A stretch of DNA of 64,000 nt from Alphaproteobacteria bacterium (lineage in GTDB: Bacteria; Pseudomonadota; Alphaproteobacteria; RF32; CAG-239). Below, one piece after another: positions 5,970-56,661 of this stretch; within the stretch, counting starts at the first letter, position 1, and each line of letters begins with the position of its first letter. The notes beneath the pieces are model-generated. The model saw only the letters and a program-made list of their open reading frames with translations. It ran no database searches and was not told where the DNA came from. The DNA lies in the NCBI GenBank assembly GCA_044432975.1, contig JAWXUC010000004.1, positions 30,291-94,290 on the forward strand, written 5' to 3'. The position numbers and the translations under genes were made by a program.

Positions 5970-6275
5970 GGATTTTGTGATTGGTGTCAAAATACCAGAA
6001 TATATGGGCTTATGGGCAGTCAATAATCCTCCCAAAGTATTTATTTTCTGCCCATATTCACCAAAAAACGCAATTTTTGCACTTTTTTGCAAAAATGCTC
6101 ATTAAAAATTCCCCTTCACAAGTGAAGGGGTGGCGCCAAAGGCGACGGGGTAGTTATGGAGTGGATTTCACATCCGCCTATATGTAGGGGACGTATTATG
6201 CATCCCACAAAAAGGATTAATTGCCATCGTCATGCTGAATTTATTTCAGCATCTAAAAGGGGATCCTGAAACAAG

Positions 6276-6335
6276 TTCAGGATGATGATTTGGGGTTTAG
6301 GATGACGGCTTGGGGTTTAGGATGACGTTTGGGGG
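6276..6335. repeat. Tandem repeat, 3 x 20 bp (TTTAGGATGACGGCTTGGGG-like)
   Basis: Units at 6276-6295, 6296-6315 and 6316-6335 read directly from the sequence. Confidence 0.8.
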
Positions 6336-6347
6336 TGTCATAACTCT

Positions 6348-6371
6348 GTAGGGTACGGTCTTGACCGTACC
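6348..6371 (+). repeat. REP element (GTAGGG head + hairpin)
   Basis: GTAGGGTACGGTC-TT-GACCGTACC. Confidence 0.75.
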
Positions 6372-6392
6372 TGAAAAAGAATTGTTTTTTTC

Positions 6393-6424
6393 GATTGGAT
6401 TGCCGCGCTACGCTCGCAATGACA
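6393..6424 (+). repeat. Second hairpin-repeat family (GATTGGATTGC..GCAATGACA), solo copy
   Basis: Same conserved flanks as the inverted repeats around the GIY-YIG gene (44162-44191 / 44534-44563) and as 57996-58026. Confidence 0.7.
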
Positions 6425-6438
6425 GTTGAGATTAAATC

Positions 6439-6463
6439 GTAGGGAACGGCGTCTCGACGTTCC
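6439..6463 (+). repeat. REP element (GTAGGG head + hairpin)
   Basis: GTAGGGAACG-GCGTCTCGA-CGTTCC. Confidence 0.7.
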
Positions 6464-6479
6464 ACAACTGAAATTGTGG

Positions 6480-14529: not shown

Positions 14530-14551
14530 GTAGGGGCGATTATTAATCGCC
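14530..14551 (+). repeat. REP element (GTAGGG head)
   Basis: GTAGGGGCGAT-TATTA-ATCGCC. Confidence 0.7.
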
Positions 14552-14592
14552 ATCATTGCCGTAAGGCAATGAAAATAAGGATGTTTGTTGTC

Positions 14593-14615
14593 GGGAGACC
14601 ATTGGTCTCCCCTAC
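14593..14615 (-). repeat. REP element in inverted orientation
   Basis: GGGAGACC-ATTG-GTCTCCCCTAC (reverse complement begins GTAGGGGAGACC). Confidence 0.7.
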
Positions 14616-15460: not shown

Positions 15461-15532
15461 GTAGGGAACAGTCTTGACTGTTCCTTGTATAATATGGCTA
15501 ATTTCAAAGGAATGGTCAAGACCATTCCCTAC
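15461..15532. repeat. REPIN (two inverted GTAGGG-head REPs)
   Basis: GTAGGGAACAGTCTTGACTGTTCC (15461-15484) and GGAATGGTCAAGACCATTCCCTAC (15509-15532). Confidence 0.8.
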
Positions 15533-16475: not shown

Positions 16476-18884
16476 ATGGAGAATAAAATGGTAGAGATTG
16501 ATGATAGATATAATCATAAGGCGATAGAGCAAAAGTGGCAAAAATATTTTGAAGATAACAAAACTTTTAAGGTGGAGTTAGATACATCTAAACCTAAATA
16601 TTATTGTTTGGTGGAGTTTCCGTTCCCATCTGGGGCTGGGTTGCACGTGGGGCATCCTCGTTCTTATACTGCACTTGATGTTATTGCTCGTAAAAAACGT
16701 ATGCAAGGTTTTAATGTGCTTTACCCAATGGGTTTTGATAGTTTTGGTTTGCCTGCAGAAAATTATGCAATTAAGACTGGTACTCACCCTGCAATTTCTA
16801 CAAAAGCAAATATTGAGAACTATAAACGTCAATTAAAAATGCTTGGTTTTTCTTTTGACTGGGACAGATGTGTTTCTACTTGTGACCCTGAATATTATGT
16901 GTGGACACAAAAAATGTTCTTGAAATTTTTAGAAAAAGGTTTGGCATATAAAAAGAAACAATCTATTAACTGGTGTACTTCTTGCAAAACTGGTTTGGCA
17001 AATGAAGAAATTGTTGGCGGAAAATGTGAACGTTGTGGCGGCGATGTTGTGCAAAAAGAAAAAACACAATGGATGTTGGCTATCACAAAATATGCAGACA
17101 GACTTATTGACGATTTAGAAACAGTAAACTTTTTAGACAGAGTAAAATCTGGTCAAACAAACTGGATTGGCAGATCTGAAGGTGCTGAATTAGATTTCAA
17201 ATTTGGCGATAATAAATTGACTGTGTTTACAACTCGTCCTGATACTGCGTTTGGTGTTACATATATGGTTCTTGCTCCAGAGCATCCTTTTGTTAAAGAA
17301 ATGAATTTTGAGAATCGCGGGGAAATTGATGCTTATGTTGAAGCTACAAGACACAAAACAGATTTAGAGCGTTCTATGGACACTAGCAAGACTGGTGTTG
17401 AATTAAAAGGTATTAAGGCAATAAATCCTTTTAATGGTGCAGAGATTCCAGTATTTATTTCTGATTATGTATTAATGGGTTATGGTACTGGTGCAATTAT
17501 GGCTGTACCTGCTCATGATCAACGCGACTGGGATTTTGCTAAAGCATTTAATTTGCCAATTATTCCTGTTTTGGCTGGTGGCGATATTGAAGAAAAAGCT
17601 CATGAAGAAGAGGGCGAACATATCAACTCTGATTTCTTAAATGGAATGATGAAAGAGGAAGCTATGACTAAGGCAACTGAGTTTGCAAAGGCTAACGGAT
17701 TTGGTCATACAAAAATAAATTACAAATTACGTGATTGGGTATTTTCTCGTCAACGTTATTGGGGAGAGCCTATTCCTGTGGTTCATTGTGATGATTGCGG
17801 AATCGTGCCATTACCAGAAGGTCAATTACCATTAAATCTTCCTGAAGTTACAGATTATTTGCCAAATGATGAAGGTGAATCTCCACTTTCTAAAGCAACA
17901 GACTGGGTAAATACTGTTTGTCCTAAATGTGGAAAACCAGCAAAACGCGAAACAGACACAATGCCAGGTTGGGCAGGGTCTTCTTGGTATTTCTTGCGTT
18001 ATATTGATCCACACAACAAAGATACATTTGCTTCTAAAGAAGCTCAAGATTATTGGATGAATGTTGACTTGTATAATGGCGGAATGGAACACGTTACACT
18101 TCACTTGTTGTACTCTCGTTTTTGGCATAAATTCTTGTATGATTGCGGAATGGTTACAACATCAGAGCCATATCAACGCCGTGTTGCTCATGGAATGATT
18201 TTGGGTGAAGATGGCGAAAAAATGTCTAAATCTCGTGGTAATGTTATTAACCCAGATGAAATTGTTGATACTTATGGTGCAGACGCATTCCGTTTGTATG
18301 AAATGTTTATTGGTCCGTTTGATCAAGTTGCTCCATGGTCTGATGAAAGTTTAAACGGTGTGTTCCGCTTTATTGCTAAAATTTGGGCAATGCACAGCAA
18401 GGTTGCAGATATTGAGCCAAGCAAAGATGATTTACACCAAATGCACAAAACAATTTTAGATGTTGTTGATAGAATAGATTTAATGAAATTTAACACAGCC
18501 GTTTCTAGCTTGATGACATTTGTTAATTATTTGGGTGGATTAAAAGAAGTTCCAAAAGTTTGTTTTGAAACTTTGGTTAAAATGCTTTCTCCATTTGCTC
18601 CACACGTAAGTGAAGAATTATGGCAAAAATTGGGACACACAGGTCTTGTTTGTCAAGCAGAGTTCCCTGTTGGAGATAAATCTTTAGCAACATCTGATAG
18701 CGTTACAATCGCTGTTCAAATCTGTGGCAAAATGCGTGGCACTGTTGAAGCTCCTGTTGATGCAGATGAAGAAACTGTTAAAGCATTAGCATTTGCATTA
18801 GATAACGTTAAAGCACAGACGGAAGGCAAAGAGATTAGGCGAATTATTTATGTTAAGAATAAAATTCTTAATGTGATAGTTTAA
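16476..18884 (+). CDS. leuS: Leucyl-tRNA synthetase
   Basis: HVGHPRSYT (HIGH) and KMSKSRGN (KMSKS) motifs and the CP1 editing region. Confidence 0.97.
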   Translation: MENKMVEIDDRYNHKAIEQKWQKYFEDNKTFKVELDTSKPKYYCLVEFPFPSGAGLHVGHPRSYTALDVIARKKRMQGFNVLYPMGFDSFGLPAENYAIKTGTHPAISTKANIENYKRQLKMLGFSFDWDRCVSTCDPEYYVWTQKMFLKFLEKGLAYKKKQSINWCTSCKTGLANEEIVGGKCERCGGDVVQKEKTQWMLAITKYADRLIDDLETVNFLDRVKSGQTNWIGRSEGAELDFKFGDNKLTVFTTRPDTAFGVTYMVLAPEHPFVKEMNFENRGEIDAYVEATRHKTDLERSMDTSKTGVELKGIKAINPFNGAEIPVFISDYVLMGYGTGAIMAVPAHDQRDWDFAKAFNLPIIPVLAGGDIEEKAHEEEGEHINSDFLNGMMKEEAMTKATEFAKANGFGHTKINYKLRDWVFSRQRYWGEPIPVVHCDDCGIVPLPEGQLPLNLPEVTDYLPNDEGESPLSKATDWVNTVCPKCGKPAKRETDTMPGWAGSSWYFLRYIDPHNKDTFASKEAQDYWMNVDLYNGGMEHVTLHLLYSRFWHKFLYDCGMVTTSEPYQRRVAHGMILGEDGEKMSKSRGNVINPDEIVDTYGADAFRLYEMFIGPFDQVAPWSDESLNGVFRFIAKIWAMHSKVADIEPSKDDLHQMHKTILDVVDRIDLMKFNTAVSSLMTFVNYLGGLKEVPKVCFETLVKMLSPFAPHVSEELWQKLGHTGLVCQAEFPVGDKSLATSDSVTIAVQICGKMRGTVEAPVDADEETVKALAFALDNVKAQTEGKEIRRIIYVKNKILNVIV

Positions 18885-19378
18885 TGGAAAGAAAATTAAA
18901 TAGGTTACAAAATTTTGACTATGCAACAAGCGTGGGGTATTTTATTACGATTTGTACGCAAGATAAAAAATGTTTGTTGAGTCAAATTGTAGGGACAGGG
19001 CTCTGCTCTGTCCAACATTTGCCAATAGGTAAATGTTTAGAAACTGAAATGCAAAATTTAGAAAATAAATATAATTTGAAGTTTGAAAAATATGTTATAA
19101 TGCCAAATCATATTCATATGATTGTAAGGCTTTGTAAAAGCCTTAGGACAGAGCAGAGCCCTGTCCCTACAATTTCTGATATAATTTGTGAGCTAAAATC
19201 TAAAGTAACAAAGCTTGCAAATAAAGAAGAGGGCATTGTTGGTAGAAAAATTTTTCAACGTTCTTTTTATGATAGAATAATACGTGATGATGAGTATCAG
19301 CCAATTGCTCAATATATCTTAGAAAATCCATATAATTGGCAAAAAGATGAATATTATAAAGGAGAAAAAAATGCTTGA
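18884..19378 (+). CDS. REP-associated tyrosine transposase (RAYT, IS200-like Y1 HUH family)
   Basis: FITICT.., HUH motif PNHIHMIV, C-terminal FQRSFYDRIIR..ENP. The start overlaps the leuS stop (TAATG). Confidence 0.85.
   Translation: MERKLNRLQNFDYATSVGYFITICTQDKKCLLSQIVGTGLCSVQHLPIGKCLETEMQNLENKYNLKFEKYVIMPNHIHMIVRLCKSLRTEQSPVPTISDIICELKSKVTKLANKEEGIVGRKIFQRSFYDRIIRDDEYQPIAQYILENPYNWQKDEYYKGEKNA
18986..19013 (+). repeat. REP arm embedded in the RAYT coding sequence
   Basis: ATTGTAGGGACAGGGCTCTGCTCTGTCC; its perfect reverse complement lies at 19146-19173. Confidence 0.9.
19146..19173 (-). repeat. Inverted REP arm embedded in the RAYT coding sequence
   Basis: GGACAGAGCAGAGCCCTGTCCCTACAAT, a 28/28 complement of 18986-19013. 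Confidence 0.9.
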
Positions 19379-19966: not shown

Positions 19967-20587
19967 GTGAAAACGGCAATTATAATGGCGGCTCCTCAAG
20001 AGTTTGGAATTAAAGATAAGCAAGTTAAGCAAACTGAAGTTAATGGTTTGCCAATTTTCTTTTCTAGCGTGGGTAAGGCTAATGCTTCTTTTTGTTTAGG
20101 AAAACTTATTGCGCAAGGTTATGATAATATCATAAATATTGGTACAGTGGCGGGCTTTGGTTTAAATCAAGGTGATGTGGTTGTTCCTAAAACATTTATT
20201 GAATGGGATTTTGATTTATCTGCAATGGGAATACCTAAAGGGCAAGTTTGGAATGCTAAAAGCAAATATATTGAATCTAAATCTATGTTTAACTTTAATG
20301 CTTTTAAGACTGCAGATTGCAAGCATTTGGCAACAGCAGATTGTTTTGTTGATGATTGGCAAAAAGTTTTTGAGGTTGATAAAGACGTAAATTTAATAGA
20401 TATGGAATCTGCACCAATGGCTAGAATTTGCTTGGAAAATAACGTGAATTTTGCAGCAATTAAAGTGGTTTCAGATAATGCAAATGGAGACAGTAAACTT
20501 GCTTGGTATGAATTTGTTGATGGGCAGGGTAAAGATATTATTAAGACAATTGTTAATAAGTTAGCGATAGATTTTGCAGGAGCGTAA
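19967..20587 (+). CDS. Nucleoside phosphorylase-fold protein, MTA/SAH nucleosidase-like
   Basis: GTG start after AGGAGG. SSVGKANAS.., INIGTVAG and DMESAPMA..VVSDNA align with MtnN motifs. Confidence 0.7.
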   Translation: MKTAIIMAAPQEFGIKDKQVKQTEVNGLPIFFSSVGKANASFCLGKLIAQGYDNIINIGTVAGFGLNQGDVVVPKTFIEWDFDLSAMGIPKGQVWNAKSKYIESKSMFNFNAFKTADCKHLATADCFVDDWQKVFEVDKDVNLIDMESAPMARICLENNVNFAAIKVVSDNANGDSKLAWYEFVDGQGKDIIKTIVNKLAIDFAGA

Positions 20588-20845
20588 GTTAAATAGGTTG
20601 CAAAATTTGGGTGATTTATGCCTAACGGCGGGACGCCGAGGGCGACGTCTCCTACAATTAGTGATTTAATTGGAACGTTAAAAAGATTTACAAATAAAAA
20701 AGTAGGGTTTAATATTTTCCAACGTTCTTTTTATTATAGAATAATATGTGATGATGAGTGTTTGCCAATTGCTCAATATATTTTAGAAAACCCATATCAT
20801 TGGCATAAAGATGAATATTACAAAGGAGATAAAAATGAGTTATAA
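20588..20845 (+). pseudogene. Internally deleted RAYT remnant
   Basis: Retains the N-terminal LNRLQN codons (GTTAAATAGGTTGCAAAATTT), then jumps to the C-terminal third (SPTISD..FQRSFYYRII..ENPYHWHKDEYYKG). The HUH motif is absent. Confidence 0.8.
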
Positions 20846-56481: not shown

Positions 56482-56661
56482 TGTGAGGTTCGTATTTTTA
56501 CGGACTGTTTGTTAAAAACAATGAATTGCAATTAAAATTTTGTTTTTGTAGAGCGGGGGCTTGCTCCCGCCGTTGCGCAGTGCCTCACGGCGGGAGCAAG
56601 CCCCCGCCCTACAGTAAATAGCCCAAAAAAGCACTTATTTTTTTCTTATACGAATCTCGCG
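56482..56661. mobile_element. Inverted-repeat element (TGTGAGGTTCGTAT ... ATACGAATCTCGCG) carrying a nested REPIN
   Basis: The ends are complementary and related to the 316-379 element. The interior contains REPIN 56548-56612. Confidence 0.55.
56548..56612. repeat. REPIN (two inverted GTAG-head REPs, 25-nt arms)
   Basis: GTAGAGCGGGGGCTTGCTCCCGCCG - 15 nt - CGGCGGGAGCAAGCCCCCGCCCTAC. Confidence 0.85.

Follow-up and report, generated by a model that had tools for sequence, protein, structure and literature searches.

We analysed a 64,000-nucleotide (nt) stretch of a contig from an uncultured fish-gut alphaproteobacterium (GenBank JAWXUC010000004.1, positions 30,291 to 94,290), here called the window. 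It contains a gene for a Y1 transposase of the REP-associated tyrosine transposase (RAYT, or TnpA_REP) type, which carries two inverted copies of one repetitive extragenic palindromic (REP) sequence within its own reading frame (Table 1). An initial annotation of the window had described a 28-mer, ATTGTAGGGACAGGGCTCTGCTCTGTCC, together with its exact reverse complement inside the open reading frame (ORF). Both lie where it placed them (18986-19013 on the plus strand and 19146-19173), and the perfect inverted complementarity extends to 30 nt, with a measured spacer of 132 nt where about 130 had been given. The arms are read in frame as I35-V43 (IVGTGLCSV) and R88-I97 (RTEQSPVPTI), the same peptides that the annotation had listed, and the codons CCT ACA of arm 2 encode the invariant P95-T96. 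As had also been stated, the two arms flank the segment that encodes the histidine-hydrophobic-histidine (HuH) motif: the spacer codes for helix A, two strands and NHIH (residues 75-78, nt 19106-19117).

On the strand that reads GTAG, each arm consists of the GTAG head followed by a hairpin of nine base pairs, one of them a G-T wobble, around a 3-nt loop. The head of arm 1 occupies 18989-18992 and its hairpin 18993-19013, with the loop TCT. The head of arm 2 is seen as CTAC on the plus strand at 19167-19170, next to the hairpin at 19146-19166. Both heads point outward, which bears out the proposed likeness to a REPIN (REP doublet forming a hairpin). There is no third match to ATTGTAGGGACAGGGCTCTGCTCTGTCC at up to three mismatches in the 64-kb window, and none arose in 100 shuffles. 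Contigs from four independent fish-gut metagenome runs all carry the sequence in identical form, which excludes an assembly artefact. When the whole 212-nt region is folded as a single strand, the arm-to-arm stem is the predicted minimum-free-energy structure both as DNA (-54 kcal/mol, z=-12) and as RNA (-92 kcal/mol, z=-12.5), and this long stem may matter for the RAYT mRNA. The predicted folds also hold small extra hairpins just inside the arms, AACATTTGCC..GGTAAATGTT and AAGGCTTT..AAAGCCTT (19014-19037 and 19127-19145). The extragenic REPIN at 14530 likewise has an inner hairpin (CATTGCC..GGCAATG), a likeness that may be due to chance.

Table 1. Features of the RAYT gene, the truncated copy and the extragenic REPINs, in window coordinates.
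Feature	Position	Strand	Basis
RAYT / TnpA_REP-type Y1 HUH transposase ORF, 164 amino acids	18884-19378	+	Pfam Y1_Tnp PF01797 (E=1.4e-7); matches to 4ER8
Arm 1 (site 1), REP	18984-19013	+	Inverted-repeat search, hairpin fold
Spacer between the arms, 132 nt, residues 44-87	19014-19145	+	ORF translation
Arm 2 (site 2), same REP as arm 1	19146-19175	-	Inverted-repeat search, hairpin fold
FQRSFYDRIIR	19253-19285	+	Profile alignment with E. coli TnpA_REP W94-R104; F replaces W
Tyrosine (Y) motif YILENP, presumed catalytic Y144	19313-19330	+	Y144 and N148 invariant; class 2 signature Y---NP (PMC6006769)
Truncated RAYT of another paralogue type	20585-20845	+	Alignment to the intact gene
Site 2 REP of the truncated copy, differing in type (GTAGGAGACGTCGCCCTCGGCGTCCCG)	20629-20655	-	Hairpin search
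Extragenic REPIN, two different GTAGGG hairpins, heads outward	14530-14615		
Extragenic REPIN, heads outward	15461-15532		
Extragenic 'double-foot' REPIN, heads outward, 15-nt spacer	56548-56612		

The paired arrangement of arms is a family trait. A protein search returned 1663 relatives, 37 of which were aligned (42-54% identity). We fetched 80 homologous loci at 36-47% amino acid identity, mostly from metagenome-assembled genomes (MAGs) of Clostridia and two from Omnitrophota; with the window these give 81 genes. A GTAGGG-plus-hairpin arm on the plus strand upstream of the HuH codons and another on the minus strand downstream of them, 104-203 nt apart, are present in 72 of the 81. Four genes have one intact arm and a degenerate partner, and five have no arm or decayed remnants only, such as L016, which retains ATTGTAG while the stem is gone.

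The initial annotation had proposed that relatives be examined for an inverted pair whose stems covary while the peptide varies. This is the pattern that the homologues display, and the reading frame varies as well. At site 1 the element is read as GTA GGG (V-G) in 72 genes and as TGT AGG GGC (C-R-G) in Paludicola sp. MB14-C6, a reading shared by six aligned proteins. Carriers available in culture include this strain, Chakrabartyella piscis BP5G and Anaerosolibacter carboniphilus DSM 103526. At site 2 it is read as CCT ACx (P-T) in most genes and as CTA Cxx (P-L) in 11. Throughout the 37-sequence alignment the two site peptides covary as pairs, each being the reverse-complement translation of its partner (VGQGLAPA/AGASPCPT, VGEGSPLP/GRGDPSPT, VGDDALGVP/GTPRVSSPT). 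One aligned protein from an alphaproteobacterial MAG (P0072) has additional VGDDA..RRRRTALGVPKK repeats at both termini, which appear to be REP arrays at the gene ends that were read into the annotated ORF.

The hairpin is conserved as such. Among 102 unique arms, stem pairs 3-6 covary, and 96% of all pairs are canonical, against 71% when the partners are shuffled; pair 4 occurs as CG in 25 arms, GC in 18, AT in 53 and TA in five, with a single mismatch. The two arms of one gene evolve in concert. Head and hairpin are identical between them in 19 of 68 cases, and arm identity is 0.91 within a gene and 0.49 between genes. Every stem difference between the arms of a gene is double and compensatory inside its own hairpin (25 of 25, no single changes). 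The other arm-to-arm differences comprise 89 at unpaired positions, meaning loops, bulges or sites where the predicted structures of the two arms differ, and one in the GTAG head. Each arm thus preserves its local hairpin, beyond mere complementarity to the other arm. Pairing between the arms, which we had considered as the selected feature, is weakened as a candidate by this compensation within arms.

Pooled divergence between related genes is 0.19 in the arms, 0.33 in the remaining coding sequence and 0.49 at third codon positions, and many gene pairs have no difference at 48 arm positions alongside 41-62% third-position divergence. The REP types of the arms are discrete and clade-specific. 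The hairpin is kept on the strand with the 5' GTAG, sense at site 1 and antisense at site 2, and this points to a structure in single-stranded DNA, not in the mRNA or the peptide. At both sites, wobbles on the GTAG strand are of the type G(5')-T(3') (30) and never T-G (0), weaker evidence in that a few REP types dominate the count. A G-T pair on the GTAG strand becomes an A-C mismatch on the opposite strand, and at site 2 the mRNA would therefore carry it too. Because the pair and its covarying stems are kept while peptide and reading frame vary, we conclude that the DNA and not the peptide is under constraint.

The protein itself belongs to the Y1 transposases. It matches the E. coli TnpA_REP structure (PDB 4ER8) at E=1e-8 in a profile search, and the best 30 PDB matches of its AlphaFold (AF2) model in Foldseek are all Y1 transposases (4ER8 with a template-modelling score of 0.60 and a root-mean-square deviation of 3.0). 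The Pfam match to PF01797 passes the cut-off. The NCBIfam model REP_Tyr_transpos (NF047646) is the top-scoring family, yet its 59.3 bits fall below the cut-off of 80; this model likely stands for other RAYT subclasses. The IS200 model scores 21 bits. In the AF2 model (mean predicted local distance difference test score of 88), NHIH lies on strand E76-83 and Y144, invariant in the 37 sequences, in helix H138-154. The site 1 peptide forms the tip of a predicted beta-hairpin (E33-36/E42-45) between beta1 and helix A, and the site 2 peptide falls in loop 84-96 after the HuH strand. The loop position of both sites in the model is consistent with the extra residues being tolerated. The residues of E. 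coli TnpA_REP that align with FQRSFYDRIIR are reported to bind the GTAG guide (PMC6006769). With regard to the motifs of TnpA_Y1 subclass 2.4, NHIH fits NH[IFV]H, FQ stands in place of WQ, and YILENP in place of YIxNNP. Homologues have WQ or FQ, and their Y motif varies (YIDTNP, YIYENP, YIENNP). In two of them (L062, L077) DH[IV]H replaces NH[IV]H, and both intragenic arms are kept.

The arms had been likened to intergenic REPs of the window, and other GTAGGG-plus-hairpin REPs do indeed lie between window genes, but with different stems. We counted about 12 GC-rich GTAGGG hairpins of about eight stem types in the 64 kb (6184-6470, 55857 and the three REPINs of Table 1), several of which match, exactly or nearly, REP types within RAYT genes of Clostridia. 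A 25-mer of the 'double-foot' REPIN is identical to the intragenic arms of eight homologous genes. A loose census of GTAG-plus-hairpin sites in the window (G+C of 33%) gave no excess, with 18 against 12.6 expected from shuffles. The GC-rich GTAGGG class alone stands out, TGTAGGG occurring 10 times against 3.0 expected. At 20 of 69 homologous loci the REP of the arm is also found outside the gene within 6 kb (at most two mismatches in 22 nt), in several cases flanking the gene. The window's own 25-mer is a dispersed repeat in MAGs of Oscillospiraceae and Gemmiger, in 29 stretches with as many as four per 8 kb; none of these 29 loci has a RAYT beside the dispersed copies.

As an 'empty-site' comparator we used a RAYT from Aggregatibacter segnis (L194; 35% identity, E=9e-21 in a small database). 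It has no internal REPs and is instead flanked by REPs with their heads outward, and where the two sites would be, its loops have 4 and 8 residues fewer. The flanking REP has the same foot, GTAGGGACAG...CTGTCC, as the window arms, with a different inner stem and loop, and is the one given for subclass 2.4 of A. aphrophilus in Table S1 of PMC6006769.

REPs inside RAYT genes are not new. Quentin et al. (2018, BMC Genomics 19:475, PMC6006769) described in-frame REPs within tnpA_REP genes of subclass 2.4, which is RAYT group 4 of Bertels et al. The inserts vary in length and sequence, lie 'generally between HuH and Y', and were read by these authors as peripheral, forming a loop that hardly affects activity, and as probably neutral. 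In-frame GTAG REPs are also found within many unrelated genes (Di Nocera et al. 2013, PMC3733652). Insertion of a REP in frame, one of the meanings put forward in the initial annotation, is accordingly supported and already published for this subclass; the window is a further example of a known phenomenon, not a discovery. In our assessment it is very likely that the arms are in-frame cognate REPs of a subclass-2.4-like RAYT.

Several regularities nevertheless appear to be undescribed, namely the inverted pair around HuH, its conservation across the family, the covariation, the concerted arms and the frame switching. The accessible text of PMC6006769 mentions no fixed second site upstream of HuH, no inverted pair with heads outward and no family-wide conservation, and likewise no hairpin covariation or selection, no concerted evolution of arms and no frame switching. 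Bertels 2017, Di Nocera 2013 and Corneloup 2021 contain no mention of REPs inside RAYT genes, and full-text literature searches returned Quentin et al. as the only source on the subject.

Judging from sequence comparison, we consider that the gene probably houses a resident cognate REPIN and so represents a self-contained REPtron, which is the best explanation overall. Its functional form, in which the enzyme recognises the arms and the pair is a resident REPIN that links enzyme and substrate, is less likely than not. It is somewhat doubtful that the pair is a selected cis-element and that the HuH-coding core is itself a functional REPIN, recognised by the enzyme on single-stranded DNA. Going by the structural model, translation would merely tolerate the arms, as a beta-hairpin tip and a post-HuH loop.

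Several observations weigh against a function for the pair. All nine genes without a full pair still have an intact ORF and HuH motif, so that the protein does not need the arms. The REP type of the arms has no extragenic copy in the 64-kb window and no extra depth in the four runs, leaving no visible REP family for the intact RAYT to serve here. The 132-nt spacer has no other copy in the window, nor is there a REPIN with a RAYT-derived spacer. The HuH segment occurs in neither excised nor inverted form in the four runs, which were examined as contigs, where rare forms are invisible. Finally, the conservation and the compensatory changes could both have been brought in by gene conversion, the donors being extragenic REPs that transposition has already filtered, instead of arising by selection in place.

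The main rival builds on this last point. The REPs may be passive passengers in two permissive loops, kept alike by gene conversion from the REP population of the genome or from the other inverted arm, with no role for the gene. Such tolerance would fit the position of both peptides in loops away from the conserved core (AF2 model; PMC6006769), the commonness of in-frame REP insertion in unrelated genes (PMC3733652), the homologues that retain the ORF without REPs, and A. segnis, whose REPs lie outside the gene. But passive residence does not sit well with sites and orientation kept in 72 of 81 genes at 36-47% amino acid identity in several phyla, nor with arms that are identical between genes at 41-62% third-position divergence and show no uncompensated stem change among 25. 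The arms are also perfect in the window, where neither the 64 kb nor run depth reveals an extragenic pool of their REP type. We regard purely passive residence as rather unlikely. Selection on the peptide, with VGxGLxxx and xxSPxPT needed by the protein and the palindromy incidental, would account for V36-G37, P93, P95 and T96 being (nearly) invariant. We give it almost no credence: other lineages read the DNA element in other frames (C-R-G-G-A at site 1, S-P-L at site 2), each peptide is the exact reverse-complement translation of its partner, and the A. segnis relative lacks both peptides. The frame changes rule out peptide conservation as the cause.

Two further alternatives place the function in the arm-to-arm repeat, and we rate both below passive tolerance with homogenisation. 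A duplex of about 30 bp around the HuH codons could lower transposase expression through RNase III or blocked translation. The predicted RNA fold, arms that are at least 90% complementary in most homologues and the tight repression usual for transposases speak for such an mRNA element. It is improbable all the same, since differences are compensated within and not between arms (25 of 25), which keeps the local hairpins and weakens the long stem, and since the site 2 mRNA would carry A-C mismatches, the wobbles being on the GTAG strand. It also leaves unexplained why the arms are palindromic and have a GTAG head as extragenic REPs do. Highly improbable, in our view, is a DNA switch in which inversion or excision of a 132-188-nt HuH segment, driven by the repeat, would silence the transposase. 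In its favour, the 30-nt inverted repeat has no mismatch, an inverted spacer would reach a stop after ...LTII, the reverse strand is open through arm 2 and ends shortly beyond it (ORF 19114-19236, minus strand), and a HuH-less truncated paralogue lies nearby. Yet neither product is present in the contigs of the four runs, within the limit given above for rare forms. Nor does the deletion of the truncated copy extend from arm to arm, and no recombinase is implied besides the RAYT itself. A 188-nt 'skip' from 18865 to 19054, considered as a possible excision joint, was rejected as it depends on a 24-nt AT-rich side and lies off the arms.

The truncated RAYT further downstream retains about 24 nt of the 5' end, the site 2 REP and the C-terminal half, without site 1 and HuH. 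Its matches to the intact gene cover 18893-18915, 19166-19186 and 19247-19373 (90% identity). The initial annotation had noted a CCTAC-ended hairpin at the equivalent second site of this copy, and a REP is indeed located there. The copy is no deleted duplicate of the intact gene, being of a LPNGGTPRVSSPT-like paralogue type with a different REP: its peptide MPNGGTPRATSPT matches the LPNGGTPRVSSPT loop of two homologous proteins (P0002 and P0072, the latter an intact form of this type), which identifies it as what is left of another paralogue that had a REP type of its own. The suggestion that the arms served as a recombination substrate for the deletion holds at one end only. The right breakpoint lies about 9 nt from the site 2 REP, but no hairpin marks the left one, which follows RLQNF (near nt 18916 in the intact gene), some 70 nt ahead of site 1.

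The GTAGGAGACGTCGCCCTCGGCGTCCCG-type REP of the truncated copy (20628-20657) has about 4-5 times extra depth by 31-nt unitigs in all four fish-gut runs, indicating that it is multicopy in the source genome. Set against the depth of the intragenic arms, this means that the amplified REP family belongs to the dead paralogue type, and none is visible for the intact gene. Short conserved stretches of the RAYT gene (18938-18973 and 19083-19128) are matched by other contigs of the runs, 9232 nt and 4791 nt long and equal in depth to the main contig. Further RAYT paralogues are thus probably encoded elsewhere in the source genome, and these are perhaps the partners of other REP types in the window.

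Both copies sit in a tightly packed operon with the gene order leuS-RAYT-GNAT-nucleosidase-[truncated RAYT]-apt-lnt. The stop codon of leuS and the start codon of RAYT overlap (TAATG, 18882-18886), and the 3' end of RAYT (19358-19378, AAAGGAG-N7-ATG) overlaps the GNAT gene and supplies its Shine-Dalgarno sequence and start. The 3' tail of the truncated copy (20822-20839) is the same module, with Shine-Dalgarno sequence and ATG for apt, a role which may explain the 90% identity of its 127-nt tail. The best alphaproteobacterial matches of LeuS (16476-18884) are 67-71% identical and come from gut and rumen MAGs, some labelled 'uncultured Azospirillum'; identity to LeuS of many Clostridia (loci L112-L191) is 56-59%. 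No RAYT is found downstream of leuS in the relatives with 67-71% identical LeuS.

If the gene does house a functional REPIN, the following scenario can be envisaged. The HuH-coding core is the spacer of the REPIN formed by the outward-headed arms at two surface loops, and the encoded enzyme would bind, and possibly nick, the hairpins of its own gene as it does those of extragenic REPs, a form of the self-recognition suggested in the initial annotation. Transposase and substrate would then form one inseparable unit, inherited or horizontally transferred together, which would keep enzyme and REP type matched. Loss of the spacer could seed 'double-foot' REPINs and in this way found new REPIN families. 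The pair may also limit the activity of the RAYT itself, and a very stable long-range mRNA stem and occasional internal deletions would be side effects.

Among domesticated bacterial transposases that live with a population of their own non-autonomous elements, those of RAYT-REPIN systems have been studied best. The gene described here bears on what keeps enzyme and REP type matched and on the origin of new REP families. A fixed cognate pair whose hairpins are kept more strictly than nearby codons suggests a built-in link between gene and substrate; if this is true, a domesticated transposase and its non-autonomous element are physically nested. In annotation, what looks like a Gly/Ala/Pro-rich 'low-complexity' loop in one of these proteins can be recognised as a translated REP, and the RAYT gene directly shows the REP type of its genome.

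Among known systems, subclass 2.4 of Quentin et al. (PMC6006769) is close in many respects. It shares NH[IFV]H and Y---NP, long REPs with a GTAG foot, 'double-foot' REPs, frame-preserving intragenic REPs including one in the loop that follows the HuH strand (beta3:alphaC), a low copy number and a patchy taxonomy. The REP of A. aphrophilus (GTAGGGACAGAC...GTCTGTCC) has the same foot and outer stem as the window arms. At the base of the stem, where subclass 2.4 canonically has three G-C pairs, the window arms have G-C, G-C and A-T, as does the A. aphrophilus REP; the stems of most homologues begin GGG/CCC. The window protein differs from the subclass in length (164 residues against a median of 194) and in having FQ for WQ and YILENP for YIxNNP. 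Intragenic GTAG/CGTC REPs (PMC3733652) and Rickettsia palindromic elements are likewise GC-rich palindromes tolerated in frame as loop residues, but they occupy non-conserved sites in unrelated genes, whereas the REPs described here reside in the gene of their cognate transposase, with sites and orientation kept family-wide.

The IS200/IS605 insertion sequences (IS608, ISDra2) also employ a Y1 HUH transposase that recognises imperfect hairpins on single-stranded DNA. Their hairpins are subterminal, on the same strand and flank tnpA, so that the whole unit moves; those of the RAYT are on opposite strands and within the gene, and the unit that they bracket cannot encode a complete enzyme. With the REPINs of Bertels and Rainey (2011, PMC3116915) the pair shares two inverted REPs that can fold into one long hairpin. 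Ordinary REPINs, in contrast, are extragenic and multicopy, with spacers of about 15-41 nt in the window, while the RAYT pair is single-copy and coding and has a 132-nt spacer that includes the active-site motif. E. coli TnpA_REP with its flanking REPs and bacterial interspersed mosaic elements (4ER8, subclass 2.2) and the A. segnis gene combine the same Y1 HUH enzyme with inverted GTAG hairpins whose heads point outward. In this classical REPtron the REPs stand outside the ORF; in the window they have come to lie inside it, where they bracket only 132 nt, the HuH motif included.

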